IMG/VR virus record: IMGVR_UViG_3300048916_000077
Coordinates: 1-42,646 of that record
From: a virus
Length of the DNA: 42,646 nt
Reading direction: 5' to 3' (one strand)
This document shows, in pieces, positions 1 to 34,965 of this stretch (positions are counted from its first letter, which is position 1; every line of letters starts with the position of its first letter). The notes beneath the pieces were generated by a model that made no database searches, was not told the origin of the DNA, and saw nothing but the letters and a program-made list of their open reading frames with translations. Made by a program: the position numbers and the translations under genes.

Positions 1-127
1 TAGGGTCACACCGATCTGATTTTCAACAACCCAGACTCCGCTAACCGCCTTTAAGACCAGAACCTGATTTGCCGCGTTCCATGTGCATGTGGTGCTGGCC
101 GTTCCACCGATCACATTGGTCAGCGCC
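1..127. repeat. Terminal direct repeat, copy 1 of 2 (127 bp, identical to 42520..42646)
   Basis: Direct comparison shows that bases 1-127 (tagggtcacaccgatctg...attggtcagcgcc) recur exactly as the last 127 bases of the window. An open reading frame reads through the junction, so this is a linearisation or assembly overlap of a circular or circularly permuted molecule. Confidence 0.95.
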
Positions 128-1872
128 ATCGTCACAGTGTTCGTTCCGGTGGTTGACAGCATCTGGATAGCCTTGGTCGTTCCCTGCTGAAGGATCGTCG
201 GGGCGGCTAGAGTGATCGCATAAGTGCCGCTTGAGGGACCCACCAAGGTTGTTAGATCGGCGTCAAGGAACACAGCGCCAGCGGCGGTTAACGCCTGCGT
301 CGGTCGGCCAGCTTCAGCCAAATTTAGCCTTGCTGAACTAGTGATATAGGCGTGAATCGCCTCATAGGCCGGCGAGGCGGGATGATTTATGCCGTTGCCA
401 CCATTCGGGAAGTTCGGCCCATAGCCAAACATTTCGTAGTCGGTCAACGCTGGGATCGTCAGAGCAGGGGTGCTCGGCGAGTAGGTGACGACGATATTGG
501 CCGGGCCGGAACCCGCAGAATATGAGATGGTCGGGGTAAAGGCAGAGCCCCCACGCTGCATAAGCCCTCGAAAGGCTATATTACCATCACAATTCACGGT
601 GATCGCTGAATTGCGTATGGAAATCTCAATGGTGCAGATGCCGTTCGGGATCGCCAATAATGTATTTAGGGCGCTGAGCCAAGTTAAGCCGCCGCCAGAA
701 AAACCGATTAATTGATAGTTTGATCCCGTCTGAGATACTCTCAGTATATTTCCCGCGAGCGCGGACAAAGTAATATCCAGATGCTGGCTGCTGCCGAATG
801 CCTGACCCCCAGTATTGTCGATAGTGAAAATTAGATCGTAGTCCTGTTGCGTGCTCGACAGCGTTACAGGAAGCGCCATCGTCTGACTGGTAATTGAGGC
901 AGTGATGATTTGTGTGGTAGGATCGAACCCGTCACGCAACATGCATCCGATGCGATGATAATCCAGATATCCATAACCTCCGCTGGATGATCCAGGTGCG
1001 CTAAAGGCGGCGAATGAACGCGTACATCCCGCCGCAAAGTCGCGAGCCTCAAGAGCAGTTACTTCGCCTGATCCGCTGTCTGCCTGCGTTCCGCGCGGGA
1101 GATTGGTGCAAAATAGGATGTCTGGGACCTTTGTGAGCCCCAACACGAACGTGACAAGATTGTTGATGGCAGAGATCGTATTCGCGCTGCTATTATTGGC
1201 GCCAAAATCCACGATGATCAGGTCGGGGTTCTGGTTCGAGATAAAACCAGACCACGGCGCCGATGTGGGGGAAAACCAAGACGGAAGGGTGACGCCGGCA
1301 GCTATAAGGGTCGTCCCAGTGGCATTGTACTGCGTGATATCCGTCCCGCCGATCGCCCGATTGACGAAACTTATGGTTCGCCCGTTTCCGGTATTTTGGA
1401 TCTGGAACTGAGCCTCCAGCATGGCCCACAACATTTCAGACGCGGATATGTGATTCGCCGCGTCCGTGCCGGTGCTATCGCTCCAGATGAGAACGACAGG
1501 GTTCAACGCCTTGGCGAAATGCCGAAGGTGGAGGGCGGGGATAATGTTATTTCCGGCAACAATCGCCCGCGCACTGTCGGGCACGACCTTCTTACGGTAG
1601 GTGCTGATGAATGAACCCGGTCCGCGCGCAATCGTATTGCCGAGATTGTAAGCTGTTGGTGCGGTGATATTTAGGTCGCACCAGAATTCCCGCGCACCGT
1701 CAGCGTTGACCATCGGATCGGCGCGGTTGAAGGTCGATTGTAGAGCGGCGCTCTCATCGGTGCCATCGCCCTTGAGCGACACACCAGCCAAGGCCGCATA
1801 ATATTGAATCGGCGGCATCGCGACGTTTGCAACGGCGAAGACAGAGGGAGAGAAAGGCGGGGAACTTGCCAT
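1..1872 (-). CDS. Distal tail fibre / receptor-binding protein with SGNH(GDSL)-like esterase blocks. These are the first 624 codons of a 625-codon gene that crosses the linearisation point; the stop is TGA at 42514..42516.
   Basis: The gene is absent from the ORF track because it runs off the window edge. I translated the minus strand by hand from ATG 1872 and the frame stays open to base 1 (MASSPPFSPSVFAVANVAMPPIQYYAALAGVSLKGDGTDESAALQ...ENQIGVTL). Motifs VVLIWSDSTGTD, NRAIGGTD, IIVDFGANN and GINHPASPAYEAI resemble SGNH blocks I, II, III and V. It lies at the distal end of the tail-gene row. Confidence 0.8.
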   Translation of the reverse strand, partial: MASSPPFSPSVFAVANVAMPPIQYYAALAGVSLKGDGTDESAALQSTFNRADPMVNADGAREFWCDLNITAPTAYNLGNTIARGPGSFISTYRKKVVPDSARAIVAGNNIIPALHLRHFAKALNPVVLIWSDSTGTDAANHISASEMLWAMLEAQFQIQNTGNGRTISFVNRAIGGTDITQYNATGTTLIAAGVTLPSWFSPTSAPWSGFISNQNPDLIIVDFGANNSSANTISAINNLVTFVLGLTKVPDILFCTNLPRGTQADSGSGEVTALEARDFAAGCTRSFAAFSAPGSSSGGYGYLDYHRIGCMLRDGFDPTTQIITASITSQTMALPVTLSSTQQDYDLIFTIDNTGGQAFGSSQHLDITLSALAGNILRVSQTGSNYQLIGFSGGGLTWLSALNTLLAIPNGICTIEISIRNSAITVNCDGNIAFRGLMQRGGSAFTPTISYSAGSGPANIVVTYSPSTPALTIPALTDYEMFGYGPNFPNGGNGINHPASPAYEAIHAYITSSARLNLAEAGRPTQALTAAGAVFLDADLTTLVGPSSGTYAITLAAPTILQQGTTKAIQMLSTTGTNTVTMALTNVIGGTASTTCTWNAANQVLVLKAVSGVWVVENQIGVTL

Positions 1873-1875
1873 TCT

Positions 1876-2358
1876 TCAGTTCCCCTCTTCGACGGCGATC
1901 GTGGTCGCCTGATTAGCTGGGCAAATCGCGTAATACGCGTTGGTAGGAACCTTGGAATCGTACTGCTGTGATCCACCCTGAGACGGAAGCGGGCCGCCGG
2001 ATGAGAGGACATAACCCTGTCCAGAAACAGCAGGGTTTGCTGTTGTGATCGTGCAGGAATTTGCTCCGATGTTCATAAAGCTGAGGGATTTCCGGCCAGA
2101 ATTAGCGGCGATCAGGACTCCGGATGTTGCGGTGACTGATACGACAGAAATCGTGTTGGTCGTTTGGGTACTGGATGGGGAAACGGAATATTTTATATTT
2201 CCGTTTGCATCGCATTGAGTCAGTCCGACCTGACCATTCGATAGGGTCGGTGGCGACGTATTATAGACGCAACCCGGATAATCGCTCGGCGAAGAAGGAG
2301 CAGCCGCGGCGAGCGGGGAAACCGCCAGCGCCGCCAGAACGAGCAGAATGCGGCGCAT
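1876..2358 (-). CDS. Small exported protein (160 aa) with Sec-type signal peptide; function unknown, beta-rich
   Basis: ORF track. The N-terminus MRRILLVLAALAVSPLAAAAPS has a basic n-region, a hydrophobic core and an AxA-like site. An AAGGGA Shine-Dalgarno-like sequence lies about 10 nt upstream of the ATG. The remainder is rich in Ser, Thr, Gly and Asn. Confidence 0.7.
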   Translation of the reverse strand: MRRILLVLAALAVSPLAAAAPSSPSDYPGCVYNTSPPTLSNGQVGLTQCDANGNIKYSVSPSSTQTTNTISVVSVTATSGVLIAANSGRKSLSFMNIGANSCTITTANPAVSGQGYVLSSGGPLPSQGGSQQYDSKVPTNAYYAICPANQATTIAVEEGN

Positions 2359-2377
2359 GGCGATATGTCCCTTTCGA

Positions 2378-3613
2378 TCAGAAGTCCGACGAAGCCGTGA
2401 TCAGGCCGCCGCCGGTCGAGTTGCCCGATTGCAGGATGCCGGCAAGGCCCGCCGTATCGCCCGAAGCCACCGTGGCGGTGATCGACAGCGCATCCGTGTC
2501 GGAGACGCCGTTGGTGGTCGCCGCCGCCGCGCAGGCCGAGAGCGCCGTCTCGGTGCCCGCAACCATCCGCTTCATCGTGCCGAAGGTGCAGGCCACGGTC
2601 GGAGCCGCGCGCATCGTCACCTTCAGCGGGATGTTGCAAACGGCAACGGTGGTGCTCTGCGCCTCGCACATGCCGGGCACGACGGTGTAGCCGCTGACCG
2701 TCTCGGCCCACTGCCAGTAGTAGCGCTGCGCCTCGGCGAGCTCGCGACCGAAGGGCTGGATTTCATAGGTCGAGGCCGTGGTCAGGCTCTGCTCAAGCTG
2801 CACGCCGGTGATCGCCAGACCATCCGTCACGCCCGCGCCGGTGGCAGTCGGGGTGAAGCAGATGGCGACAGCCACCTCCTTCGTGGTGGTCGGGATGAAG
2901 ATCGGCGAGGAGGTGAAGCGCTGCCAGGAGCCCGTCACCGTGCCGGTCATGGTGCCGGTGGTGGCGATGCCGGTCCAGGCCGGGGTGATTGCCGGAGAAG
3001 CGGTCCAGGAGGCGAAGCCCTCATCCGCTGTGGTGCCGGTCAGGACATAGGCGCTGAACGCCCCGCCATTGTCGGTCACCAAGCCGCCCAGATCTTCGGC
3101 GTAGAGGCTGAGAACAACCTGCTGCCCCTGGACTGCCAAGGCGCGCCCGCTCGACACGCCTTGGAGGATGCAGACCGGCTGGGTCAGCGCGCCCGAGGTG
3201 CGATAGAGTTGGACGTTGTTAGGGAGGCCAGTCGGGCCGCCGGTGGTCGCCGCCACGGCGCGGCCGGCGCCGGAGGTCACGTTGACATCGCAGACCCAGC
3301 GATCAGTCGAATAGGCCGCCGTGGTCGTGGCCGAGGTCGTGGCGCAGGTGCGAATGCCGGTGCCGCGCTGCTGCACGGCCATGGCGCCGTTGTCGAGCAG
3401 GTTGCGCGGCGTGCTGAAGGTCGCCGTCGAGTTCGGCGTGATGCCGCTGTTGATCTGGCTGATCAGGTTGTTCAGGTCGTTCTGGTCAGCCGGGAAGCTC
3501 ACCGGGTTCGATCCGCTGACGCCGGTGAAGAAGGGCAGATTGGCCGCCCCCGCAAAGGGTGCGCCGATCAAAGCGCCGAGAGTAATCAGGGTACCCAGAA
3601 AACGCTTTGACAT
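2378..3613 (-). CDS. Tail-fibre-like / carbohydrate-binding-like protein (411 aa) carrying a Sec-type signal peptide
   Basis: ORF track. A GGGAG sequence lies 8 nt upstream of the ATG. The N-terminus is MSKRFLGTLITLGALIGAPFAGAAN. The motif NLLDNGAMAVQQRG resembles the NLLxNGxFxxWQRG motif I recall at the start of jelly-roll domains in many phage fibre proteins. The antisense 420-aa ORF is Arg/Gly-rich junk. Confidence 0.7.
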   Translation of the reverse strand: MSKRFLGTLITLGALIGAPFAGAANLPFFTGVSGSNPVSFPADQNDLNNLISQINSGITPNSTATFSTPRNLLDNGAMAVQQRGTGIRTCATTSATTTAAYSTDRWVCDVNVTSGAGRAVAATTGGPTGLPNNVQLYRTSGALTQPVCILQGVSSGRALAVQGQQVVLSLYAEDLGGLVTDNGGAFSAYVLTGTTADEGFASWTASPAITPAWTGIATTGTMTGTVTGSWQRFTSSPIFIPTTTKEVAVAICFTPTATGAGVTDGLAITGVQLEQSLTTASTYEIQPFGRELAEAQRYYWQWAETVSGYTVVPGMCEAQSTTVAVCNIPLKVTMRAAPTVACTFGTMKRMVAGTETALSACAAAATTNGVSDTDALSITATVASGDTAGLAGILQSGNSTGGGLITASSDF

Positions 3614-3650
3614 GATGCAATCTCCCTCAAAGGTGGCGGCAATATAACAC

Positions 3651-3902
3651 TTATGGCTTAGGTGGAAAGTGGATAATCAAATTGACCAGAGTTCCGGTCA
3701 TGCTGACCAGCAATGTGCTGAAAACCCAGAACAGGATTTTGATCACGGTATCGACTTTGTGGGTCAGATCGCCCTGCCTTTGCGCGCATACGGCGGTGTG
3801 CGTGGCGAGGTCCGCCAGCGCACGCTCCGCGAGTGATTTGATGGCTGCCATCTCACGTCTCTCTTCTGATGTCATTCCGACCATCAAACACTCCCAAGGC
3901 AT
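3651..3902 (-). CDS. Small tail-anchored membrane protein (83 aa, or 77 aa from ATG 3884); function unknown
   Basis: ORF track. It has a charged, helical N-terminal part (MTSEERREMAAIKSLAERALADL) and one C-terminal hydrophobic helix (ILFWVFSTLLVSMTGTLVNLIIHF). A GGGAG sequence lies 7 nt before the internal ATG at 3884. Confidence 0.6.
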   Translation of the reverse strand: MPWECLMVGMTSEERREMAAIKSLAERALADLATHTAVCAQRQGDLTHKVDTVIKILFWVFSTLLVSMTGTLVNLIIHFPPKP

Positions 3903-3939
3903 CTTCGTTCAAAGCGACTTTCCTGTGACCATGACCCGA

Positions 3940-6900
3940 TCACTGCTGCATTTCCGCCGAGACCGTGACGTCGAGCGCCGTGCAGGTGCCCGAGGCGATC
4001 CGGCCAGCCACGTAATCGCCGGGCGCGATAGCCGCGCTCGATACGGTCGCCGGTGTTGCCGTCCCGGCCGCCGTCAGCGTGACCGAGCCGATGTTCGTTG
4101 GGGATGCGCAGGTGGTGCTGGTGCCGCATTCCAGAAGCTGGACAATCGGGTTGCCGGTGCAGGTGAAGACGTTGGCCGACATGACGAGGCCGCTGACCAA
4201 GCCGCCATTGCTGATCTTGGCGAAGGCAAACGGCGTCGTCAGGGCCGAGCCCAGCGTGCCCGAAGAGAAATTGATGTTCTTGCTGACGCCGGTCCCCTGC
4301 GACAGGTAGCAGACGGCCAGCACGCCGGTGGTGTTGGCCGGGCACTGCAGCGTGTAGATCGTCTGGGCGGCCAGCGACACCGGACCGGCAACCGACTGCC
4401 CGGCGACGAACAGCGTCGCGCCCGAGGCCACCGTGAGCGTGATGCCGGCGGCCGGCTCGTACATCTGGATCGTGCAGACGGTCTTGGTCAGCGCCTGGCT
4501 GACGTTCTGGCCCAGCGTGTTCGGGATGGTGACGGTATAGCTCGGCGTATTGAAGCGGAAGAACCGGCCGCAGTCGTTTTCCGAGAAGCTATAGGCCGCC
4601 GCAACGGTGACGATCGGCAACTCGGCGTGGTCGAGCGGCCCGGTCGCAAGGTCTACGCCTTCCGGGATCGAGGTCGGGCCGGAACCGTTGTTCAGAGCCA
4701 CGGCGGCGGCCGAGGACATCAGGTTGATCTGCGCCGGGGTGAATTCCTTGTAGGTGCCGCCGGCCGTCTGCAGCGCGATCAGCGTCAGGTTCGTGCCGAC
4801 ATTGGGCTGGCCCGAGGTGGTGGCGAGCAGGCTGACGCCGGTGGGCGCGAACGTCACGTTCGCCAGGGAGGTGTTCGCCTCCTCGGTGTAGATGAACATC
4901 GAGTTCGATGGCGCATAGCCGGCCGAGCCGCTGTTGCCGAACCAGCCTAGGTTCGTCGTCTGGATTTGCGGCGTCTTGGTGCCGGTGACGATGAAGCGCT
5001 GGAACTGGCCGCCGATGTTGATGTTCTCGTAGTTGCCCCCGGTGGCGCCGTCCATTTCGAGCACGCCAGCGACATTTACATCGTTCTGGCCGCTGCCCAG
5101 GTTCGAGATATGGACCCCGCCCTTGTAGACGCTGCCCGCCGCGTCGGGACCGCGGCAGATGCCGCCCGCGCCCTGGAACGAGCCGATGGTCAGGAAGGAC
5201 GAGCCGCCGTTCGAGTCGTCATAGATCGAGCAGCCGTACTGGTTGGCCGGATCGCCCTTGAACTGGTCCCAATCCGTGGTCGGGTGGTCGAACTGGATGC
5301 CGACCGTGCCGGTCTTGCCCACCGGATCGGTGTAGCGCGGCAGATAGAAGCCGTTGGCGTCCTGATAGAATACCGGAGACTGCGCGGTGAAGGATTTTGT
5401 CGGGGCCTTGTTCAGCGTGATCGTGCCGGCGTTGCAGGCGACGATAAAGGTCCGGTCAGCGATGCCGAGGGAGCCGTTGCCGTGCGAGGACAAGCCGATG
5501 GAGTTAAAATTGTCGGTCCCGCAGGCGTTCACGACCACATCGAAGCCGAGGAAGGTTGCCGTGATCGGCCCGAGGGTGCCAGGGTTCGCGGTGGCGTTGA
5601 AGATCAGGTAATTGCCCTTGTCGCCGACCGCCTTGTTGTCGGCATAGCCGGCGACATAGGTGCCGTCAGGAACCCCGGCACCCGACACGCCATAGCCCGG
5701 CTGGACATTGCCCGCGCTGACCGCGCCGACGCTCATGGTGCACGACCAGCCGTTGGCAGCGGATCCCGCGCAGCCGGTGATGTTCACGGTCGTGCCGGTG
5801 CCGGCCACGGTGCTGTGCGCGCCGGTGAAGGTGGTGGTGTTCGTGGTCGAGCCGAACCAGTTCACCGCCCTGATCCAACGCGGCAGGATGGTGCCGTTGG
5901 TGTTGCCGGTGACAGCATTGACCGGCAGATACCCGGCATCGCAGCGCCAGTTTTCGAGATAGGCGAACGATGCCTCGATGCTGCACAGCCCGGTGGTCGG
6001 GCCGAAGCCCGAGGGCACCATGGCAACCCACTCGAAATTGACGTAGCCGGAATTGGCGTTGGCATGGAGCGGCCCACCGGCGCCGTAGGACAGGCCGCCG
6101 CCGGTCAGGATCGGCTGGGCACCAATCGACTGCTGGAACGTGTCCAGGAAGTTGCTGGCGGCGTTGAAATAGGCGTCGTCCAGGTGGCCGTAAAAGACAT
6201 CCTGGGTGATGCTACTGTTATAGGTCGGGCAGGGCGCGGAGACGGTCAGCGCGGTGCCCGACGCGGCCAGGATGGTGCCCTGGTAGCCCGACTTGAACAC
6301 ACCGGCGACGACGCTGCTACCCAGCGTCTGGTTGGCGACGATGGCCTGCGTGATGCTGATATTCTTGCCCACGTCGGCGCTGCCGAAGTTCTGCCCGGCG
6401 ACGGTAAGGGCGCAGTTTCCCGAGGTGATCGTAGTGGTCGCCAACAGGATCTTCTTCAGGTCGCCGTGCGCTCCCCAATTGCGGATGTCATATTGCTTCT
6501 GCGCCGCGATCAGCCAGCAATTGTTCGGCGTGGTCGAGGGTATCTGCGAGCCGCCGTCGCCAGCCCCGCTATTGAGCGAACAGGCCGATTTCGACAGGGT
6601 GTACAGCACCGTGGGCGCGTCACCGGCGGCATAGTACCCCTCGACCAGCACAGCGATGCCTGACGGAAACCCTGCGATCGGCAGGGATGCCAAGTTGGCA
6701 ACGGTGGTGACGACATAGGAGGCCGAGCCGCCGCTGCGGTACCAGCGATGGCCGACAGCATCGACGATGATGGTCGAGCCGTTATCCGGCGAGGTGGTGT
6801 CGAGCGGGTTATAGATGAACAGGCCGCCGCTGCCATCGGCCGGGAAGGTGCCGCCGGCGACGATGATCGAGGGTGGCGCGGCGGTGTTCGCGCGCAGCGC

Positions 6901-7089
6901 GGCGAAGGTGTTGACGTTGGTGTTGTTGAGGCACGTCTGTATCCAGTTGAAATCGCCATTGACCTGGACCGCGTTCGCGACTTGGCCGTTGACGAAGACG
7001 AACGGATAGGCACCGCAGACCGCCGCTTTGGACGGTCCGGCGCCAAGCGCGATCAGCATCAGGATCAGGAGGCCGATGAGGGATTTCAT
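3940..7089 (-). CDS. Large tailspike / depolymerase-like protein (1049 aa), right-handed beta-helix type, with a signal-peptide-like N-terminus
   Basis: The track ORF is 3940..7350. I trimmed it to ATG 7089, which sits just after the upstream stop (7092-7094). The N-terminus is MKSLIGLLILMLIALGAGPSKAAVCG. The fibre-like segment VNGQVANAVQVNGDFNWIQ is present. QYDIRNWGAHGDLKK resembles the YxVxDYGAxGDG motif of the Pectate_lyase_3 / tailspike family. Gly/Asn/Thr-rich repeats are typical of a beta-helix. Confidence 0.8.
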   Translation of the reverse strand: MKSLIGLLILMLIALGAGPSKAAVCGAYPFVFVNGQVANAVQVNGDFNWIQTCLNNTNVNTFAALRANTAAPPSIIVAGGTFPADGSGGLFIYNPLDTTSPDNGSTIIVDAVGHRWYRSGGSASYVVTTVANLASLPIAGFPSGIAVLVEGYYAAGDAPTVLYTLSKSACSLNSGAGDGGSQIPSTTPNNCWLIAAQKQYDIRNWGAHGDLKKILLATTTITSGNCALTVAGQNFGSADVGKNISITQAIVANQTLGSSVVAGVFKSGYQGTILAASGTALTVSAPCPTYNSSITQDVFYGHLDDAYFNAASNFLDTFQQSIGAQPILTGGGLSYGAGGPLHANANSGYVNFEWVAMVPSGFGPTTGLCSIEASFAYLENWRCDAGYLPVNAVTGNTNGTILPRWIRAVNWFGSTTNTTTFTGAHSTVAGTGTTVNITGCAGSAANGWSCTMSVGAVSAGNVQPGYGVSGAGVPDGTYVAGYADNKAVGDKGNYLIFNATANPGTLGPITATFLGFDVVVNACGTDNFNSIGLSSHGNGSLGIADRTFIVACNAGTITLNKAPTKSFTAQSPVFYQDANGFYLPRYTDPVGKTGTVGIQFDHPTTDWDQFKGDPANQYGCSIYDDSNGGSSFLTIGSFQGAGGICRGPDAAGSVYKGGVHISNLGSGQNDVNVAGVLEMDGATGGNYENINIGGQFQRFIVTGTKTPQIQTTNLGWFGNSGSAGYAPSNSMFIYTEEANTSLANVTFAPTGVSLLATTSGQPNVGTNLTLIALQTAGGTYKEFTPAQINLMSSAAAVALNNGSGPTSIPEGVDLATGPLDHAELPIVTVAAAYSFSENDCGRFFRFNTPSYTVTIPNTLGQNVSQALTKTVCTIQMYEPAAGITLTVASGATLFVAGQSVAGPVSLAAQTIYTLQCPANTTGVLAVCYLSQGTGVSKNINFSSGTLGSALTTPFAFAKISNGGLVSGLVMSANVFTCTGNPIVQLLECGTSTTCASPTNIGSVTLTAAGTATPATVSSAAIAPGDYVAGRIASGTCTALDVTVSAEMQQ

Positions 7090-7091
7090 GA

Positions 7092-7727
7092 TCAGTTCCC
7101 GATCGCGATGTAGTTGAAGTCGCACGTCTGGTTGAAGTTCACCGTGCCCAGCGTGTCGAGCACCGCCGTGAAGCCGGCCGCGTTGACGGTGATCGCCCCG
7201 CCTGAGGGCTGGAAGCCGCCCGCGCCTGAGTTGGCGTTTCCGCGCGGACTGACCAGCACGACGAAGGTATTGGAGGGAAACGGCGTCGGGTAGGAGACCG
7301 CCAGGGTGGATCGGCCGGTGCCCGTGTTGGGACAGGTGCCCGAGCCCCACTTGATGATCAGCGGGCCGATCGGCTGCTCACCCTGGAAATTGACCACGCG
7401 GCTGGTGGTGAAGAAGGTGAGCGGCGCGCCGCCGAGGTTCGACAAGGACGCGACCGGATCGGCCACCGAGGCGAGGTTGTCGGCCTTCAGCAGCACCGGG
7501 CCGGTCGCGCCGAGTTGGGTGTTGACGTAGGACAGCGATGCACCGCCGAGGTTCGCCAGTGCCGCGGTCGCATTGGTCGCGCCGGTGCCGCCATCGACGA
7601 TCGCAACCGGCACACCGGGGATGTCGAGCCCGTTCAGATACGAGACGATATCGGCGAAGTTCTGGTTGACCTGGGCCGCGGCGGCGTACTGGCCGGGGAT
7701 GAAGGTATAGGTGACGCTCGCGGCCAT
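7092..7727 (-). CDS. Tail fibre protein (211 aa), gp53-like C-terminal domain type
   Basis: I trimmed the track ORF to ATG 7727, which forms an ATGA overlap with the upstream stop. It has the fibre motifs AAAQVNQNFADIVSYLNG and VDGGTGATNATAALANLGG. The C-terminal IIKWGSG...YPTPFPSNTFVVLVS...GFTAV pattern matches my recollection of the gp53-like fibre C-terminal domain. Confidence 0.8.
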   Translation of the reverse strand: MAASVTYTFIPGQYAAAAQVNQNFADIVSYLNGLDIPGVPVAIVDGGTGATNATAALANLGGASLSYVNTQLGATGPVLLKADNLASVADPVASLSNLGGAPLTFFTTSRVVNFQGEQPIGPLIIKWGSGTCPNTGTGRSTLAVSYPTPFPSNTFVVLVSPRGNANSGAGGFQPSGGAITVNAAGFTAVLDTLGTVNFNQTCDFNYIAIGN

Positions 7728-9442
7728 CAGTTGACCCCCTGTGCTGTCTGCTGCTGGTAGCCGAGAATCTGGTAATTCATGAATAGGTTGCCGATGCGGA
7801 ACCCGGCGCTCGACTGCCCGGTCACCTCGATCTTCATCTGGCGGAACACCAGCGCTTCCGGCCACGGCATCCGCCACGGCGACATCGGCGCCAGATCACC
7901 GTCCCAATTGTTGCCGTCCCACTGGAAATTCGTGTCCCACAGCGTCGTCGTCAGCCCGGTGCCGCCCCACTTGGCGTTGCCCCACTGGAAATTGCCCCAG
8001 ATCGTCTGCTGGCCCTGCGCCGGGTCGATCACCACCTGGGCGAGCCAGGAGCCGGCCGGGTCGGAGGCGGTTACCGTGGTCACCGTGTTGCCGCCGATGA
8101 AGGACATCTCGATATTCGTCTCGATGACGCAATTGTTCTTCATCTGGTGGTTGTCGGGCAGCAAGACCGTCTGCCAGTCGAAGGTCATCGGCTGGCCGTT
8201 CTCGATATAGGTCGAGACCGGCGAGGGCCGCACATCGGTGCGCCACAGCCGCGACGACACGAGGTCGGGCGTGATCGCGTTGGCGGCCAGGAAGGTGCCG
8301 CGCCAGGCGGCGATCAGCGCATAGGGGAAGCTGTGTGGCCCCGACCACGCCTTGAGCACGAAATCGAACCAATATTCCTCGAACGGGTTGCCGTACTTCT
8401 TCCCGCTCTTGATCGTCACCCGGTACACATTGCGGTTGAAGGCGGCGCAGATGCGGGTCGGGGCCACGGCGTTCTGGAACGGCACCGCGATGCCGTCACC
8501 ATTGCCGCCGATCGGATCGCCGAGGTTTCCGTTCACGTCGAGGATCCGCAGCCCGTCATGGTCGATCATGGCGATGCCGTAGGGCGTCGTGCAGATCGAG
8601 TTCTGCGAGACCGTGCCGCCGCTGACGTTCAGTTCGTTGATGTCCCAGACGCTCGGGATGCCGGTATAGTCGCCGGTGAGCTGGAAGATGACCGAGCCCT
8701 GCTCGCTCTCCTTGAACACCATCAGCGACTGCACCACGCCGCCAAGTTGGTTGTTCAGCGGAACGCCGGCCATCGCCGTGATCGGCGTGGACGAGCCGAA
8801 GAACAGCACCTGATTGGCGTTGGTGACCTTGAGCGGGATCTGCGCGTCTGACGCGACCAGGGCGTTATCGACGGCGTAATAGAGCCGGCCGCCCAGCTTG
8901 TTGACCAGCGACGGCGGCTTGATCAGCGGGTTGCCCTGCAGATTGCCCGAACTCCATGACACATGCCCCGGAACCGAGAGATCGAACCAGCCGATGAAGC
9001 CGTTCTCGTTGCCCTTGAAGCCGGGGTGCGTCACCACCAGGAAGGTGGACAGGGCCGAGACCGTGGGCGGCGTCCAGTCGCCGGTCTCCAGCGGGGAGTA
9101 CGGCACGTTGTCGATCGTCACGCCCGAGATCGAGGCGAGGGTGCGGGTCAGGATGTTGAAGGCGAACGGCTCATCCCGGCCGGGGAAGCGGCCGGTGCCG
9201 ATCATGCCATAGGCCATGTCGCCGATCACGAACAGCAGCGTCACGGCGCTGGGCGCGTCGAGTTCGGCAAAGGTCTCCTGCTGGATCGCCGCCGGCCGGC
9301 AGACATGGACGCCGCGCGTGGACGGGTCAGGGATCAGGTCGCGCAGCACCGACATGGCGCCGGGGAACGAGTTCGTCCCGTCGAGCGCATCGGAGAGGCC
9401 CGCCGGGCGCCATTTCAGTGGGGTTGCATTTCTGAGCGGCAT
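7727..9442 (-). CDS. Virion tail protein, possibly tail tubular protein B / nozzle-like (571 aa)
   Basis: ORF track. The call rests on its size, its position between an adaptor-like gene and the fibres, and an N-terminus (PLKWRPAGLSDALDGTNSFPGAMSVLRDLIPDPSTRGVHVCRPA) that resembles in pattern the start of T7-gp12-type proteins. The assignment is positional and by recollection only. Confidence 0.45.
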   Translation of the reverse strand: MPLRNATPLKWRPAGLSDALDGTNSFPGAMSVLRDLIPDPSTRGVHVCRPAAIQQETFAELDAPSAVTLLFVIGDMAYGMIGTGRFPGRDEPFAFNILTRTLASISGVTIDNVPYSPLETGDWTPPTVSALSTFLVVTHPGFKGNENGFIGWFDLSVPGHVSWSSGNLQGNPLIKPPSLVNKLGGRLYYAVDNALVASDAQIPLKVTNANQVLFFGSSTPITAMAGVPLNNQLGGVVQSLMVFKESEQGSVIFQLTGDYTGIPSVWDINELNVSGGTVSQNSICTTPYGIAMIDHDGLRILDVNGNLGDPIGGNGDGIAVPFQNAVAPTRICAAFNRNVYRVTIKSGKKYGNPFEEYWFDFVLKAWSGPHSFPYALIAAWRGTFLAANAITPDLVSSRLWRTDVRPSPVSTYIENGQPMTFDWQTVLLPDNHQMKNNCVIETNIEMSFIGGNTVTTVTASDPAGSWLAQVVIDPAQGQQTIWGNFQWGNAKWGGTGLTTTLWDTNFQWDGNNWDGDLAPMSPWRMPWPEALVFRQMKIEVTGQSSAGFRIGNLFMNYQILGYQQQTAQGVN

Positions 9443-10200
9443 TAGCTGCCGCCAGTGAAGAACCCGACGTTCTTGGTGTCAGGAAGCCGGTTGAACGAGT
9501 TCCCAAAGCGACGCCGATCGAGGCCGATGGTCTTTGCCCTGCCTTCATCATCAGACGCCTGCATCTGCATGAACTTGCGCAGCAGGTTGCCAGAGCCCAG
9601 GCCGTTCGGGTTGTCCGAGAGGAAAGCTTCCGCCCGCGTGTCGTCGGCCAACTTCATCAACTGGCCGGTCAACTCGGTGATCAGGAAATTCTGGTTCGGG
9701 AACCACGGCACGGTGTTCGAGGTCTCGGGCGTCGCGATATCCGGCAGGTATTTGTAATAGCGGACGGTCATCGGATAGACGCCGTTCGACGGCTGCCAGA
9801 CATACATCAGCGGGTTGCTTGGCGGGTCCTGCGTCAACGGCGAAATATCGGTGTAGAACACGGTCGGGTAGTTATCCAGGCCGGGCGTCACCGGAAGCTG
9901 GTCGAACTGCGCCTGATCGTAGTTGATCAGGATGTACGGCACGCCGTTGATGGTGAAGAACACGCCGTCTCGGGTGTGGCGATAGTAATTGAGCGGCAGC
10001 GGGTAGGGCCCGCCGCCGTTGCCCGAGCCGTTATCGGCCACCAGATTGAAATTGAAGACGCCGCGGCACAGGTCCATGTCCTGGGTCTGTGCCAGGTCGC
10101 TCAAGATCATGTTGAGCAACATGCCGGCTTGGGCGGTGAACCCCGGCACATGGGCTGCACCGCAAGCGAGCGCGACGATCTGGGCCGCGGTGAGGGCCAT
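9442..10200 (-). CDS. Virion protein, possibly tail tubular protein A / adaptor-like (252 aa)
   Basis: ORF track. It is translationally coupled to the downstream 571-aa gene. Coding quality is good and the functional call is positional inference only. Confidence 0.4.
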   Translation of the reverse strand: MALTAAQIVALACGAAHVPGFTAQAGMLLNMILSDLAQTQDMDLCRGVFNFNLVADNGSGNGGGPYPLPLNYYRHTRDGVFFTINGVPYILINYDQAQFDQLPVTPGLDNYPTVFYTDISPLTQDPPSNPLMYVWQPSNGVYPMTVRYYKYLPDIATPETSNTVPWFPNQNFLITELTGQLMKLADDTRAEAFLSDNPNGLGSGNLLRKFMQMQASDDEGRAKTIGLDRRRFGNSFNRLPDTKNVGFFTGGS

Positions 10201-10811: not shown

Positions 10812-11335
10812 CAGTGCAGGTCCGTCCTTGTGTTCAGCGCCATCGGCGCGTTGAGAGCGGCGCCGTGGCGGATATGGGTATCGCGCTCGCGACGGTTGAA
10901 GTTGGTGAACTTGCCGTCCTTCTGGTCCTCGTGCTGCCAGCTCATCTGCATCTGGTCGATCAGCGTGGCATAGACAGCCGGGCTGACCCGGTAGGTGTGC
11001 CCGTGCATGTATTTGCGGCCGTCCAGATTGATGCCGTCGATGCAGAACGGCGGCAGGCTGACCGTGACATGCTGAAGAAGCTCCTCGGCGGTCGGCGCGG
11101 GGCCTTCCTTCGGGGCGAGGCCGGCGGCGACGCGCTCCTCCTCCTCGATCTCCTCCATCTTGGCCTTCAGCGCAGCCTGACGAAGCTCCTTCTGGACCTT
11201 CTCTCGGGCCTTGGCGCGCAGTTGGGCGATGTCCTCCTCAGAGAAGGCATTCGGATCGGCGGCAACGACAGCGGGCTTTTCCGGGGCGGGATCGGCCTTC
11301 GGCGCGGCGGCCTTCTTCAGTTCATCGCTCATCAA
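10811..11335 (-). CDS. Hypothetical virion-module protein (174 aa), Lys/Glu/Ala-rich N-terminal half
   Basis: ORF track. It is translationally coupled on both sides. No motif was recognised. Confidence 0.6.
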   Translation of the reverse strand: MMSDELKKAAAPKADPAPEKPAVVAADPNAFSEEDIAQLRAKAREKVQKELRQAALKAKMEEIEEEERVAAGLAPKEGPAPTAEELLQHVTVSLPPFCIDGINLDGRKYMHGHTYRVSPAVYATLIDQMQMSWQHEDQKDGKFTNFNRRERDTHIRHGAALNAPMALNTRTDLH

Positions 11336-11631
11336 CTATGCACCCATGAAGCGCCGGCGGCAGCGGCGGCCGACAGCAGGATAGGAAAGCCGGTGGCCGG
11401 ATCAAACGCCACCACATCGCCGGGGAGCGCTTTCAGGATTCCCCGGTTCGGCACGTACAGGATGCCCGTCCGCGCCCACGCACCGGGATAGATCGGGTTC
11501 GTGTTCACCTGATCGTTAAGGATGCCCTCGGCGATCGTGGCGATATCCGCGTTCGACATATTCAGGCCGCGCGAGAAGGTCAGCGCGGTAAGGGTTGTAG
11601 TCCCTGCCGTGCCGAGGGTGATCGTCGCCAT
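11332..11631 (-). CDS. Small head/neck-module protein (99 aa)
   Basis: ORF track. It lies just downstream of the capsid gene. No motif was recognised. Confidence 0.55.
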   Translation of the reverse strand: MATITLGTAGTTTLTALTFSRGLNMSNADIATIAEGILNDQVNTNPIYPGAWARTGILYVPNRGILKALPGDVVAFDPATGFPILLSAAAAAGASWVHS

Positions 11632-11634
11632 GGA

Positions 11635-11895
11635 TCAATCCCCACCAGTGGCGAAGCCCTGGATTTGCGCGATAGCGGCCTGGGCAGCCGTCGAGAGAGC
11701 GGCGCCGGCGGCAACCACCGCCGTGTTGATGTTCGCCGTGCTCGGGGCGTTGCCGCCCGGCACAAGGATATAGCTGCCGCTGCTGGAACCGGGCGGGCCG
11801 AGCGAGAACTCGGCAACCTGGGCGTTCGGCACCGTCTCCGATGCCGCGCCGTCCGGGGCCCACTGAACCTTCAAGGTCATCGATACGAGATACAT
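11635..11895 (-). CDS. Small head-module protein (86 aa), possible decoration/accessory protein
   Basis: ORF track. It lies immediately downstream of the major capsid gene. The functional suggestion is positional only. Confidence 0.5.
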   Translation of the reverse strand: MYLVSMTLKVQWAPDGAASETVPNAQVAEFSLGPPGSSSGSYILVPGGNAPSTANINTAVVAAGAALSTAAQAAIAQIQGFATGGD

Positions 11896-11921
11896 TTCGC
11901 TTATCCTTTCAGGATATCAGA

Positions 11922-13277
11922 TCAGCCGTACGAGCCGCTGAAAGCCGAGGTGCTCTCAATGCGGGCCATAAATTTCACATTCTCAAGGAGAACCCCATAA
12001 AAATTGGTCCATGAGACGATGCGAAGCTGGTTGTTCGGGTCCGACTTGTCGGCCTTGTCCAGGTACTGCATCTTCAGCCGTGACAGTTCCACGACCGTGT
12101 AGCTGTCCTCACCGAACACGTAGGTCGGATAGACGGTCAGGCCGCTGGTGTTGCCGGGGTAGGCCGGCGGCGTGCGCGCCGGGCCGATGGCCGTCAGGAT
12201 CACTGCGGTATTGGCCGGAAGCTGGGTTGCCACGCCGGTGAGCGGACCGCTGGTCGGGCCGCTGGGCGAGAGCGCAAGCTGCGGCGAGAGCGTCGAGGTG
12301 CCGAGGCCGATATAGACGTTGTAGGTGAAGCCGGCGACGTTCGGCGTGGTGACGGTGATGGAGCCATTCGGCCCGGTCACGGCGATACCGGCCGAGATCG
12401 AGTAGATCTGGCTCTCGAACTGGTTCTGCGTGTCCTGGCCGGTGACGGTGATGTAGTAGGTGCCGGTCGCCAGAGAACCCGAGGTTCCAGCGCTGCCGGC
12501 CGATTGGCTGAGGCCGGTCCAGGACGGGACCATGTTCGATTCGCAGAAGCGGATCGAGCGCCACTCGCCGATCTCGTAGTTGTACAGGCGGTTGATGTCG
12601 CTGTACGACCAAGCGGTGACCACCGTGGAGTTCTCGGAGAAATCGCCCGACACGTTGGGGTGGATGATCGCGACATAGTGCGGGTTCATCCGCGGGTTGC
12701 TGCTGGCCTTGCTGCCGCCGTTGCCGGCGCTGACCTTCACGTCCTCTTCCTTCGGTCCCATGAACATCGGGGCGCCGTTGGTGCGCAGCGCCGTCGCGGT
12801 CCGGTTGACCGTGTGCGGGTCGAGAACATCGCCGGCCTGCAGCGCGGCGCGGCTGCCGCGCGAGTTCACATAGTTGACGTTCGGCGCGCCGTTCAGGTTG
12901 AGGTAGGTGTTGCGCTCATCGGTTTCCGCGATCTGCAGCGAGCAGAGGCGGATGGCCTGCTTGAACGGCTTGTGGAAGATGGTCAGCTCGGCCACGTCGG
13001 TGATGTTCACCCGGTCGCCCCATTGCTGGGCGGTGGCGCTGACCTGGGTGATCGTCATCGTCTCGCCGGCCGGGGGCACACCTTCCGAGAGGGGAGCGTA
13101 GGGGAGCGGCAAGCGCTCGAACCGGGTGGCGGTGTAGGTGACGCCGTAGCCTTCCGGCAGGGTCGCCTTATTCGCGAACTGGTATGCCACCAGTTGCTTC
13201 TGCGTCAGGCGCAGCGTCTCTTTCTGGATATACTTGAGACGATCGGCTGCGAATTGCGGCGATGCGTTAATGCCCAT
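11922..13277 (-). CDS. Major capsid protein, N4-gp56-like family (451 aa)
   Basis: ORF track. It follows a scaffold-like gene. The N-terminal pattern LPEGYGVTYTATRFERLPLPYAPLSEGVPPAGETMTITQVSATAQQWGDRVNITD matches my recollection of the N4-gp56 capsid family (G.t..~R...L....pL.EG.tP). The size is typical. Confidence 0.8.
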   Translation of the reverse strand: MGINASPQFAADRLKYIQKETLRLTQKQLVAYQFANKATLPEGYGVTYTATRFERLPLPYAPLSEGVPPAGETMTITQVSATAQQWGDRVNITDVAELTIFHKPFKQAIRLCSLQIAETDERNTYLNLNGAPNVNYVNSRGSRAALQAGDVLDPHTVNRTATALRTNGAPMFMGPKEEDVKVSAGNGGSKASSNPRMNPHYVAIIHPNVSGDFSENSTVVTAWSYSDINRLYNYEIGEWRSIRFCESNMVPSWTGLSQSAGSAGTSGSLATGTYYITVTGQDTQNQFESQIYSISAGIAVTGPNGSITVTTPNVAGFTYNVYIGLGTSTLSPQLALSPSGPTSGPLTGVATQLPANTAVILTAIGPARTPPAYPGNTSGLTVYPTYVFGEDSYTVVELSRLKMQYLDKADKSDPNNQLRIVSWTNFYGVLLENVKFMARIESTSAFSGSYG

Positions 13278-13321: not shown

Positions 13322-14113
13322 CTAGAACTTCACACCCGCGAGACGCCGTTCCAGCGCCTCGATGCTATCGTCGCCGCGCCGGCCGCCCCTATCGGAGCCC
13401 GCTTCGCCTGCTGCCCGCCCGGGTCTGCCCTGGGCTGCTGCGATGCGCGAAGCGCCGGCCTTCTTGGCCTTCCCGGCGTTCTTCATCGACTGCTCGAACA
13501 GCCGGGTACCGAGAACGTGCTTGAGGGCCGTTTCACGATCCACCGTGAAGCCCCGCGCTTTCTGATCCGAGACCACCTTTTCCACATCCGTCGCGTACTT
13601 CCGCGCCAGCGGGTTTGAGGTCTGCAAGGAGCGGAAAGCCGCTCTGTCCGTCTCTTCGGCCAGCGTCATCTGCGTCTGATGAAGCCGGGCGTTGACCTTG
13701 TTCATTTCCTTCGCGACCAGGTACTGGACCTGTTCGTGAGGGGCCATCAGTGCGAGGCGTTCGGCCTCCTGGGCGGCTTCCGCCGCGATCTCCTGGGCGG
13801 TCGGCTGGCGGGGCGCTGTCTGCAACTGCCGGATTTCGGCAATCTCGCGCTCCAGCCGGTCGGCCCGGTCTTTCGCTTCTTTCGCCTCTGCCTTGGCTAA
13901 CCGCACGCTCTCGGCGGCGCGGCCCTGGCGCGGCGAACGGGCTGCTACATGCCCTTCTTGCCCTTCGCCTTCATCATCTTCTTCGCCGGCATCGTCTTCT
14001 TGCCCTTGGCCTTCATCGCCATCGGCATCCCCTTCGGCTTCATTGCCTTCGCCATCTTCATCTCCACCGGGAATTTCGATGTCTTCGTCTTCAACCAAAC
14101 TCAGGTCGGACAT
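13322..14113 (-). CDS. Scaffolding protein (263 aa)
   Basis: ORF track. It lies between the portal and capsid genes. It has an extremely acidic N-terminus (DEDGEGNEAEGDADGDEGQGQEDD) followed by a long helical, charged region. An AGGAG sequence precedes the ATG. Confidence 0.65.
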   Translation of the reverse strand: MSDLSLVEDEDIEIPGGDEDGEGNEAEGDADGDEGQGQEDDAGEEDDEGEGQEGHVAARSPRQGRAAESVRLAKAEAKEAKDRADRLEREIAEIRQLQTAPRQPTAQEIAAEAAQEAERLALMAPHEQVQYLVAKEMNKVNARLHQTQMTLAEETDRAAFRSLQTSNPLARKYATDVEKVVSDQKARGFTVDRETALKHVLGTRLFEQSMKNAGKAKKAGASRIAAAQGRPGRAAGEAGSDRGGRRGDDSIEALERRLAGVKF

Positions 14114-18858: not shown

Positions 18859-19031
18859 CAGGTCACCGGCACGTAAGCGCCATCGGCGGCACGGGTCAGG
18901 TCACGTCCAACGGCCATATCCCTCTCAGGATCGATCCTATGACCGGCCATGGCTGCGTGCAGGGCATCGAAGGCGCGACGCTGTTCCTCAGCTTGGCGCC
19001 GTATCCTCTCCTGCGAGTCCCGGTACGACAT
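18858..19031 (-). CDS. Small hypothetical protein (57 aa)
   Basis: I trimmed the track ORF to ATG 19031. It has ATGA overlaps at both ends. Confidence 0.45.
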   Translation of the reverse strand: MSYRDSQERIRRQAEEQRRAFDALHAAMAGHRIDPERDMAVGRDLTRAADGAYVPVT

Positions 19032-28706: not shown

Positions 28707-28845
28707 GGGTGCGAGCCTCTGGCTTTTTGGTTGGTTGCTGGGCACACATTGCTTGCGCGGGAGACCTGCAAACGGGCGGAACCCTTAGAGCAATGCTTGG
28801 TATGCTGCGACGGCCCAGCGCGCCGCCTCCAAATTCCGCCCGTGC

Positions 28846-31432: not shown

Positions 31433-31447
31433 CCAAGGAGACCTGAC

Positions 31448-34906: not shown

Positions 34907-34965
34907 TTTCGCTTCTCCCTGTAAGGAAAATTAACTATAATTTATCCACACAACGGAAGCCAGAC

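Follow-up and report, generated by a model that had tools for sequence, protein, structure and literature searches.

Predicted Sec-type leaders on fibre-type proteins of an uncultured clade of short-tailed phages

The receptor-binding protein of the Ff filamentous phages, pIII, carries a cleavable Sec leader and folds with disulfide formation in the periplasm before joining the particle. A C-terminal membrane helix keeps it anchored, and it enters the particle as this is extruded through the envelope. In phage P22, the tailspike is added last during assembly, a step that also proceeds in vitro. Lom of λ and the lipoproteins Llp and Cor of T5 serve in superinfection exclusion or receptor masking, and Lys44 of fOg44 and Lyz of P1 are late phage proteins that use the host Sec system before lysis. 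We know of no tailed phage that attaches its fibres outside the cytoplasm, and literature searches for such fibre addition found no tailed-phage case. WceF of Pantoea stewartii and RbmB of Vibrio are secreted tailspike-fold glycanases, in which a leader is combined with a tailspike-like architecture and surface polysaccharides are the targets (PMC7949094). In Burkholderia phage Bcep781, gp49 (equivalent to Bcep43 gp48 and Bcep1 gp51) is annotated 'possible tail fiber; possible signal peptide domain', an annotation for which no follow-up was found in the literature. Here we analyse a 42,646-nucleotide stretch of viral DNA (IMG/VR record IMGVR_UViG_3300048916_000077; hereafter, the window), in which host-recognition proteins appear to be exported from the cytoplasm, where tailed-phage particles are built.

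The fibre module of the window and its leaders

The phage of the window encodes an HK97-type capsid, whose nearest GenBank phage match has 27% identity, as well as a portal, a terminase and a nozzle. The fibre module lies on the minus strand and starts with a nozzle-like tail protein of 571 aa without a leader (7727..9442), which comes after an SU10-type adaptor gene (9442-10200; a match to Pfam PF24175 under the curated cut-off). Next is a leaderless tail fibre of 211 aa (7092..7727), which matches Pfam Gp53-like_C (2e-8) and PHROG tail-fibre families and opens with the fibre N-terminal motif MAASVT-YTFIPGQYAAAAQVNQNF. It is followed by a leader-bearing, tailspike-like protein of 1049 aa (3940..7089), with the fibre motif, a flanking Cys pair and shared tailspike N-terminal modules, by a 77-83-aa protein with one C-terminal membrane helix (3651..3902), by a 411-aa protein with a leader and two jelly-roll domains (2378..3613), and by a leader-bearing orphan of 160 aa with four Cys and a low GC3 of 0.56 (1876..2358). 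These last four ORFs were found in the sequence where the first-pass annotation had placed them, the 1049-, 411- and 160-aa genes lying in the tail module downstream of adaptor and nozzle. A leaderless fibre-module protein of 625 aa (1..1872, minus strand; PHROG 17220 at 1e-20), also of low GC3, runs over the window start, with its end near 42514 of the circular map.

The first-pass annotation had assigned Sec-type signal peptides to the 1049-, 411- and 160-aa proteins, and a positive n-region, a hydrophobic core and small residues at -3/-1 are indeed present in all three. The N-termini are MKSLIGLLILMLIALGAGPSKA/AVCG, MSKRFLGTLITLGALIGAPFAGA/ANLP and MRRILLVLAALAVSPLAAA/APSS, respectively, the slash marking the predicted cleavage. 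The signal peptide predicted for the 1049-aa protein, read from the sequence, covers residues 1-22 (7024..7089, minus strand; SKA/A), that of the 411-aa protein residues 1-23 (3545..3613, minus strand; AGA/A), and that of the 160-aa protein residues 1-19 (2302..2358, minus strand; AAA/A), the last placed from the sequence and by analogy with the site AAA/ANVPYFTG in the related locus L007. The positive residues of the n-regions are K2 (1049 aa, its only positive charge), K3 and R4 (411 aa), and R2 and R3 (160 aa), and a Gly/Pro break occurs at -4 to -7 in each leader. Cys counts are even in all three proteins (4, 8 and 22 in the 160-, 411- and 1049-aa proteins). An L-[AS]-[GA]-C lipobox is absent from the three leaders, the sole one in the window being that of a lipoprotein at 19031-19357; without a lipobox Cys at +1, the three do not fit superinfection-exclusion lipoproteins of the Llp/Cor type.

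Leaders were called by a rule-based caller together with comparative evidence. Among the approximately 60 genes of the window the caller flagged the fibre-region leader proteins, with the 1049-aa protein escaping only through the limit of the start scan, the lipoprotein, and a short ORF on the plus strand (19370-19714), in overlap with lysis genes of the minus strand and probably a spurious call. The starts had been considered defined by upstream stops and Shine-Dalgarno sequences. This does not hold for the stop of the 1049-aa gene, whose frame is open for 87 codons upstream of the ATG, overlapping the 211-aa gene, and its start therefore rests on the Shine-Dalgarno sequence and on homologues. 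Taken together, the three N-termini are very probably genuine Sec-type signal peptides cleaved by signal peptidase I, and the export step is well supported.

The single C-terminal helix of the protein between the leader-bearing genes 1049 and 411, also seen in the first pass, follows a charged, coiled-coil-like N-terminus, and the gene has an atypical GC3. The probable start at 3884 gives a protein of 77 aa. It has homologues in L007 (77 aa) and L057 (87 aa), and a similar protein is present in L048, these proteins having an H-T-x-x-C motif in common; Pfam and PHROG searches gave no family match. For the 160-aa protein, a search of 5.8 billion proteins found no homologue. It weakly matches leader-bearing proteins of L041 and L058 at their N-termini, and a 475-aa paralogue in L007 has the identical leader.

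The first-pass annotation had further remarked that no endolysin is recognisable, and no endolysin or other muralytic domain was found in any ORF scanned. This would suit another first-pass proposal, Sec-delivered lysis factors, which would stand in for the unrecognised endolysin, as would the small membrane protein among the leader-bearing genes and the existence of signal-peptide and SAR endolysins in other phages. Such a role is nevertheless highly improbable: the leader-bearing proteins have no lysin match in Pfam or PHROG, their leaders have cleavage sites rather than Gly/Ala-rich SAR domains, and their genes belong to the tail module, while a two-helix holin-like protein and the lipoprotein are encoded elsewhere, near the terminase gene (19031-19578). 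Moreover, the 1049-aa protein shares tailspike modules, and the fold of the 411-aa protein is a double, lectin-like carbohydrate-binding jelly roll with no catalytic match.

The 411-aa family

The hydrophobic N-termini are conserved in related fibre genes. The 411-aa protein has at least 459 homologues, 120 of which, those listed, provided the leader statistics. The first 10 residues carry a net positive charge in all 120, and 118 have a leader-like N-terminus. Cleavage sites were counted in the 103 of the 120 that could be anchored on a conserved helix. In these the predicted leader has a median length of 20 aa (quartiles 18-23), the -1 residue is Ala in 95, Ser in 5 and Gly in 3, the -3 residue is Ala in 64 and Val in 26, and 85 have an [AV]-x-A site. 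The uncharged stretch has a median of 18 aa in the family, c-region included. The h-region has an entropy of 2.45 bits, the highest of any segment (1.4-1.8 in the domains), and keeps a mean Kyte-Doolittle value of 2.1 despite the sequence drift. By these statistics, conservation of the leader is not chance.

The same numbers bear on the first-pass proposal of N-terminal helices as virion anchors. In this reading the N-termini would not be cut off but would stay on as signal anchors or structural helices, which would hold fibres or particles at the inner membrane or form part of the tail attachment. In its favour are three leader-bearing fibres of related loci (L001, L037 and L054, out of 19 considered below), which have a longer hydrophobic stretch and lack a Cys clamp, and the single positive charge of the 1049-aa n-region, cleavage being a prediction. 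(The corresponding fibre of L022 also lacks the clamp and has a leader of ordinary length.) It is improbable, however, because the helix sequence varies while the small residues at -3/-1 are conserved, the opposite of what is expected of a helix with a fixed partner. In addition, the median leader, with its Gly/Pro break, is below membrane-span length, and the conserved Cys pairs argue for an oxidising compartment.

Past the leader, the 411-aa protein consists of a short conserved N-terminal peptide and two lectin/CBM-like jelly-roll domains, with eight Cys. Among the 120 listed homologues seven of the Cys columns are conserved at 72-98% and the eighth at 47%, and the Cys count is even in 102. 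A leaderless fibre (MW202481), homologous at its tip (35% identity), is without most of the Cys conserved in the family. The C-terminal consensus is ITASADF (ITASSDF in the window copy), and the final Phe is kept in 108 of the 120. The AlphaFold model (mean pLDDT 82.5) has two soluble β-sandwiches, which match CBM4/16/22 and Fbs1. Annotated phage tail fibres in BFVD, from Xanthomonas FoX4, BcepSaruman and cyanophages, match at TM 0.5-0.7 (best 0.71). Although a C-terminal aromatic residue such as the conserved Phe is a mark of Lom-like outer-membrane β-barrels, the soluble β-sandwich model and the conserved Cys pairs speak against a protein of this kind. The N-terminal peptide resembles the fibre motif only weakly (hhalign probability 13%, P = 0.002 across 23 columns).

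Every clade member sampled has a gene of the 411 family, which is core and syntenic. The family is absent from 185,579 species genomes, except for one phage contig binned with an Acidocella MAG, and is thus not a bacterial gene or a prophage moron. The family is conserved over its full length (47% mean column identity), which is unlike a typical host-range determinant and counts against its being a virion fibre.

Post-nozzle fibres and a possible assembly outside the cytoplasm

The clade was compared in 37 related phage loci, 28 of them non-redundant loci used for gene content between the nozzle and the 411-family genes. N-termini are leader-like in 35 of 37 genes of the 411 family, in 19 of 37 preceding genes (the post-nozzle fibres) and in 11 of 36 following genes, against a background of 5-8% in genes further off (Fisher p = 7e-9); of the 37 relatives of the nozzle-like protein one is flagged. 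Leader-bearing genes are the sole genes between nozzle and 411 family in 14 of the 28 non-redundant loci. L061 has no gene there, and the apparent gap of L026 contains another leader-bearing fibre, of collar type. A leaderless gene is present in the interval in 11 of the 28 (about 40%). Internal-virion-type genes come after the fibre module, and in about half of the relatives every fibre candidate located between these and the nozzle gene bears a leader. Judged from sequence, leaders on fibre-, spike- and lectin-type proteins are a trait of an uncultured clade of approximately 42-kb short-tailed phages and not a peculiarity of one genome. The first-pass view that export leaders are unexpected on such proteins of a tailed phage is strengthened by this clade-wide conservation.

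The post-nozzle fibres have the motif P-F-x-F-x-N-G-x-x-A-x-A-x-Q-V-N-x-N-F. In two leaderless fibres it lies 6-8 residues past the Met, and in 19 leader-bearing ones about 5-10 residues past the predicted cleavage site, with a Cys pair added around the motif in 15 of the 19. The first 46 mature residues, those of the 1049-aa protein included, have a median identity of 47%, whereas the distal parts exceed 40% identity in only 8% of pairs. A conserved N-terminus with swapped distal parts is, at the sequence level, the usual signature of a docked receptor-binding protein. Leaders are present in all five close homologues of the 1049-aa protein, which match only 8-41% of its length, and SKA/A aligns with AKA/S in the homologue P0122. 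The mature N-terminal 207 aa have 1171 relatives, of which the best 150 are leader-like in about 60%; leader-bearing tailspike relatives do not differ significantly from leaderless ones in Cys density (p = 0.2). The earlier description of the protein as a β-helix is not established by the AlphaFold model (mean pLDDT 54), which is confident only at 60-200 and 830-930 and has short repeated strands of low confidence. No Pfam match was found in the library used, and a precomputed tag, PF27114, is uninformative on this question.

The shared tailspike modules, lectin-like jelly rolls and fibre-like architecture indicate proteins of the receptor-binding type. Their best reading, which we hold tentatively, is that they are exported, folded oxidatively in the periplasm and joined to particles at or after lysis. 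The proteins would cross Sec unfolded and lose the leader, and folding, disulfide formation and trimerisation would take place in the periplasm. Cleavage would uncover a 6-8-residue lead-in to the fibre motif, the same as that behind the Met of leaderless fibres, and the exported proteins would most likely be the fibres of the virion itself. Particles filled with DNA and fitted with adaptor and nozzle would be put together in the cytoplasm; contact with the fibres in the periplasm would have to wait until the holin opens the inner membrane or the cell has lysed. We infer that the exported fibres then join the particles, in a step that would resemble the last, spontaneous addition of the P22 tailspike but would occur outside the cytoplasm. 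Before lysis, the exported lectin or spike proteins could also act on nascent surface glycans, by binding or cutting them. Such periplasm-matured core fibres, attached outside the cytoplasm, were missing from the first-pass readings, and they are what the proteins look like in the comparative data.

Alternatively, the proteins may be exported but never enter the particle, acting as free periplasmic or released depolymerases or lectins on the host's own surface glycans. These would be cut, stripped or masked, with superinfection exclusion, no sticking of progeny to debris and easier escape through the capsule as benefits, while the particle adsorbs via leaderless fibres or the nozzle. This version of the earlier depolymerase or receptor-masking proposal is a live rival, if a less likely one. 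The leaderless 211-aa (Gp53-like_C) and 625-aa proteins of the window could be the real virion fibres, which speaks for this rival and against a virion role for the exported ones; the rival is also favoured by the leaderless genes in 11 of 28 relatives, the pectate-lyase-like or Beta_helix regions in two relatives of the 1049-aa protein (P0123 and P0126), and the leader-bearing genes known to adjoin tail genes, such as λ lom and T5 llp. Secreted tailspike-fold enzymes also exist in bacteria, for example, Pantoea WceF (PMC7949094). However, if the enzymes were free, about half of the relatives would have no fibre candidate in their module, and the 411-family gene, being core and syntenic, is not a patchy moron. 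A conserved N-terminal peptide with swapped distal domains, and a mature N-terminus that matches that of leaderless fibres, are predicted by docking and not needed by a free enzyme.

It is conceivable, though less than an even prospect, that the clade as a whole routes its receptor-binding fibres via the host Sec system, has them fold and form disulfides in the periplasm and attaches them at holin opening or after lysis. The same Sec routing would then probably also occur in other phages, such as Bcep781-like ones and those of L064-type contigs. Textbook assembly pathways do not explain exported fibres of tailed phages; if the proposal is true, it would constitute a two-compartment assembly pathway, undescribed for any tailed phage.

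Comparison with known systems

The window proteins differ from pIII in having no C-terminal anchor, and the phage in having an HK97-type capsid, portal, terminase and nozzle and in being released presumably by lysis. Like the spikes and fibres of the P22/T7 type, they are encoded in the tail module past adaptor and nozzle, and have a conserved docking N-terminus and an exchangeable distal part, but the P22/T7-type proteins are without a leader and are added in the cytoplasm. Lom, Llp and Cor likewise have export signals; their genes are neighbours of receptor-binding genes, and their site of action is the infected cell's envelope. They are, however, small barrels or lipoproteins of accessory function, whereas the window proteins are large and fibre-like, without a lipobox, with a soluble β-sandwich fold, and the clade has the 411 family as part of its core. 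The genes of WceF and RbmB are chromosomal and belong to exopolysaccharide loci, whereas those of the window are part of a complete phage genome, within its structural operon, and bacterial genomes lack them. Endolysins of the signal-peptide and SAR types are muralytic enzymes of lysis cassettes, a domain and a context that the window proteins do not have.

Bcep781 gp49 differs in coming from a myophage of another genome type, in which its gene is not beside a nozzle gene; another tail fibre is annotated in relatives, and a lipobox-like LTAC is also possible in its leader. In spite of these differences, the leader of gp49, MKKNKHVLFGVLLTACGLPAFA/QF, precedes the fibre motif found in the window proteins, here FAPGQVLTAAQLNSQF, and gp49 shares the tailspike N-terminal module with the 1049-aa protein (42% identity over 71 aa). 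Also Cys-rich and from a virulent tailed phage, gp49 provides a cultured parallel to the proteins of the window.

Genome and tail module of the window

A 127-bp direct repeat at the termini (1-127 and 42520-42646) indicates that the window is a complete genome, circular, circularly permuted or terminally redundant, of ~42.5 kb and 62% GC. The phage is a short-tailed one, judging from its HK97-type major head protein, portal-like protein (a weak match to PHROG head-tail-adaptor), large terminase, SU10-type adaptor and nozzle-like protein. No tRNAs were found in the window. A DNA search against GenBank phages gave no match, and the best capsid match among them, to uncultured spring-water viruses, has 27% identity; neither search thus finds a close or cultured relative there. 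Recombination genes (Erf and RecE-like) are found at 30209-32472. An HNH endonuclease, endonuclease VII, RusA and a Lar-like protein for restriction alleviation are the products of ORFs 30992-31432, 34864-35499, 28362-28745 and 34035-34442. The minus strand downstream of the fibre module carries genes (35413-36723, 40703-41260, 41509-42072 and 42047-42517) for two cupins resembling Asp/Asn beta-hydroxylases, a sulfotransferase-like protein and a GARS-like ATP-grasp protein. The group may serve protein or glycan modification; its hydroxylase and ATP-grasp genes are also present in two related phage loci, L002 and L004.

The tail module is encoded on the minus strand, starting with the 571-aa nozzle-like protein (7727-9442). 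It is followed by a 211-aa fibre with a Gp53-like_C region and no leader (7092-7727), the 1049-aa protein (3940-7089), a small protein with a C-terminal membrane helix (3651-3902, the start probably at 3884), the 411-aa protein (2378-3613), the 160-aa protein (1876-2358), and a leaderless 625-aa protein (1872 to 1, continuing across the junction to about 42514). The 1049-, 411- and 160-aa proteins have predicted leaders: at each N-terminus a hydrophobic core follows a positive n-region, with a Gly/Pro break and small residues at -3/-1. The first-pass annotation had located these three proteins correctly and given their sequences correctly, but its statement that upstream stops set all the starts fails for the 1049-aa gene, whose frame is open for 87 codons upstream. 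Support for that start comes from a GGGA box and from homologues sharing the same Met. When a rule-based leader caller was run on all ~60 window genes, the positives were the 411- and 160-aa proteins, a lipoprotein encoded close to the terminase gene and one short plus-strand ORF (19370-19714), the last probably spurious as it overlaps minus-strand lysis genes. The 1049-aa protein was missed only because of its open upstream frame.

Parts of the module look like recently gained cassettes. The GC3 of the 625-, 160- and 77-83-aa genes (window 1-2358 and 3651-3902) is 0.56-0.66, compared with 0.87-0.90 in the adjacent fibre genes. The 160-aa protein is an orphan, a word-indexed protein search having found no homologue, and its mature N-terminus has a weak local likeness to leader-bearing proteins in two related loci (L041 and L058). 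L007, a close relative, has a 475-aa paralogue of the 411 family (11265-12692) with exactly the leader of the 160-aa protein, MRRILLVLAALAVSPLAAAA (2302-2358), whereas the mature parts are unrelated. The shared leader and unlike mature part, together with a GC3 of 0.56 for the 160-aa gene, point to a cassette swap by recombination exactly at the leader/mature junction. The N-terminus of the small membrane protein is charged and coiled-coil-like; the protein also has an H-T-A-V-C motif and a single C-terminal helix. It has no family match and is missing in most relatives; homologues are found in L007 and L057, a similar protein in L048, and in L002 an analogue of the same architecture but without the motif. 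With relaxed thresholds, small proteins with a C-terminal anchor occur in the window and in only 4 of 36 related loci, which marks them as accessory. A holin-like or regulatory role for the window protein would be a guess.

Conservation of the leaders and fold of the 411-aa family

The signal peptides that had been proposed for the fibre-region proteins are borne out as real and conserved by the rule-based caller and the comparative data. The 411 family, that is, the homologues of the 411-aa protein, comprises at least 459 proteins of ~400 aa, many from contigs of 41-46 kb. All 120 listed members have net positive charge within the first 10 residues and 118 are called leader-like. In the 103 members that can be anchored on a conserved helix, the predicted leader has a median length of 20 aa, and an [AV]-x-A site is present in 85. 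The five close homologues of the 1049-aa protein all bear leaders too. Among 37 related loci, drawn from sources including IMG/VR and with genes called by our own heuristic, a leader is present on the 411-family gene in 35/37, on the preceding gene in 19/37 and on the following gene in 11/36, against a frequency of 5-8% elsewhere in these loci (Fisher p = 7e-9). The hydrophobic core of the 411 family has the lowest sequence conservation of the whole protein, yet stays strongly hydrophobic. A core that drifts in this manner is what a signal peptide shows, rather than a helix bound to a fixed structural partner, and the suggestion that the N-terminal helices serve as virion anchors is accordingly disfavoured.

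An AlphaFold model of the 411-aa protein, built from a 53-sequence alignment, is confident (pLDDT 82.5). In it, the leader helix is followed by a flexible N-terminal peptide containing a single short helix, and then by two beta-sandwich jelly rolls. A PDB sequence search with the family profile gave no match; by fold, the model matches PDB entries for the carbohydrate-binding modules CBM4, 11, 16, 22 and 61, for the Fbs1 sugar-binding domain and for portions of phage baseplates. Among predicted viral structures, it is closest (TM up to 0.71) to uncultured-phage proteins labelled "carbohydrate-binding CenC-like" and to annotated tail fibres, the latter from Xanthomonas phage FoX4, BcepSaruman, Ralstonia phage BMB50 and several cyanophages. 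Seven Cys columns of the family are well conserved (72-98%) and an eighth is present at 47%; the Cys count is even in 102 of the 120 listed members, and the conserved columns are consistent with disulfide pairs. MW202481, a leaderless fibre with a homologous tip (35% identity), is without most of these Cys. The C-terminal ...ITASADF prompted consideration of an outer-membrane barrel, which was rejected in view of the two soluble jelly rolls and the conserved Cys pairs. In a scan of 185,579 species genomes, the family was found only in one phage contig binned with an Acidocella MAG, which argues against a bacterial gene and against a prophage moron.

The 1049-aa protein is less tractable. It had been called a beta-helix tailspike, but its AlphaFold model (pLDDT 54, from a shallow 24-sequence alignment) is too poor for such a call. 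PDB sequence searches with the 211- and 1049-aa proteins gave no matches, and the central part of the latter has no Pfam or PDB relatives. Pectate-lyase-like or Beta_helix regions are present in relatives of the protein, and the modules that make up its mature N-terminal 207 residues occur in 1171 proteins.

Fibre N-termini and a proposed route to the particle

The 211-aa fibre, the 1049-aa protein and the proteins encoded just after the nozzle gene in relatives have in common the motif P-F-x-F-x-N-G-x-x-A-x-A-x-Q-V-N-x-N-F. The motif lies 6-8 residues past the Met in two leaderless versions and about 5-10 residues past the predicted cleavage site in 19 leader-bearing ones, so that cleavage would recreate much the same N-terminal geometry as in the cytoplasmic versions. 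Cys residues are present on either side of it in 15 of the 19. A profile comparison sets the N-terminal peptide of the 411 family against the motif in the register expected, though the alignment is weak (P = 0.002, probability 13%). The post-nozzle fibres are conserved in their N-terminal part (median 47% identity) and swapped in their distal parts, as in docked receptor-binding proteins.

The comparisons lend good support to the leaders being export signals on proteins of the receptor-binding type. Once exported, the proteins would have the leader removed and would fold outside the cytoplasm, in an oxidising compartment. The main rival to their joining the particle is that they then stay free, as periplasmic or released depolymerases or lectins that strip or mask the receptors of the infected cell. 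This fits the window reasonably well, since leaderless fibre proteins are encoded there too, but fits the minimal relatives poorly. Of 28 non-redundant loci in which a nozzle gene and a 411-family gene both occur, 14 have nothing but leader-bearing genes between the two. In L061 no gene lies between them, and an apparent gap in L026 contains another leader-bearing fibre with a collar-type C-terminus. Thus, in about half of the clade (the uncultured phages carrying the family), the only fibre candidates of the tail module bear leaders. The 411-family gene is followed by conserved internal-virion-type genes. Two further observations concern these loci. In several relatives a conserved peptide of ~50 aa (...KSP..S-V-[ND]-S-E-[ST]-T-R...L-G-P-R-x-A) directly follows the 411-family gene (L001, about 13431-13700; L002, 12996-13148; L004, 11235-11384; L017, 9058-9297); it is absent from the window. 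L026 also encodes (366-1091) a leader-bearing protein of ~240 aa ending in ...GFAFLKMF, which by eye looks like an outer-membrane barrel of the Omp25/Omp31 type and is possibly a phage moron.

Because the exported proteins resemble the core fibres of the clade, they most likely join particles outside the cytoplasm, either on opening of the inner membrane by the holin or once the cell has lysed. Attachment there would be physically plausible: holin lesions of the λ type are micron-scale, and P22 tailspikes add spontaneously to spikeless heads in vitro. That the leaders reflect a categorically new, two-compartment assembly route is a tentative proposal, to which we give somewhat less than an even chance. 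The reading of the leader-bearing proteins as Sec-delivered lysis factors is disfavoured, as no lytic domains were found in them. It had been proposed together with the lack of a recognisable endolysin, and indeed a scan covering most other window ORFs found no endolysin domain in any of them. On the minus strand upstream of the terminase gene (19031-19578) are encoded a holin-like 74-aa protein with two hydrophobic helices and then a lipoprotein (lipobox LVAC).

Leaders beyond the clade and known systems

Among the best 150 of the 1171 relatives of the tailspike N-terminal modules, ~60% bear leaders, and the scale of the phenomenon may therefore be large. The Cys count is even in 80% of leader-bearing and 61% of leaderless tailspike relatives, and Cys density does not differ significantly between them (p = 0.2). 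Leader-bearing fibres are not confined to the clade: L064, a locus of a different phage type, has two successive leader-bearing fibre/spike-like genes (6568-9959) directly upstream of genes that gene order and N-terminal sequence alone mark as putative terminase, portal and capsid genes. Another leader-bearing group of module relatives belongs to an integrase-bearing element. The nearest homologue with the leader feature is gp49 of the cultured Burkholderia myophage Bcep781, which has a leader, the same fibre motif, the same tailspike module and a pectate-lyase-like region, and which its depositors annotated as "possible tail fiber; possible signal peptide domain". The gp49 copy is uninterrupted (L066, 11600-11687); the gp48 copy of Bcep43 (L005, 3634-3700) needs a frameshift in the poly-A run coding the Lys-rich n-region, which could be slippage or a sequencing error.

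The observation of Sec-type leaders on tail-fibre or tailspike proteins is real, conserved and unexplained by current models. In the textbook view, tailed phages assemble wholly in the cytoplasm. If core fibres are exported, a final assembly step would take place in another compartment, and lysis timing, Sec capacity and DsbA would be tied to phage infectivity. Periplasmic folding would then be needed for engineering fibres and depolymerases and for expressing them heterologously, and pipelines that count a leader against "virion protein" would wrongly annotate the receptor-binding proteins of many uncultured phages. If the proteins are instead free secreted lectins or depolymerases, they would form a widespread, unrecognised class of phage-encoded envelope-remodelling factors, bearing on superinfection exclusion and enzyme discovery. 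Under either reading, the cultured Bcep781 makes the question of exported fibres testable.

No description of Sec-exported tail fibres of a tailed phage was found in the literature searched. Lom, Llp, Cor, signal-peptide endolysins and the bacterial WceF each share one aspect with the proteins described here but fail the defining features tested. The nearest functional analogy to exported fibres is pIII of the filamentous phages.
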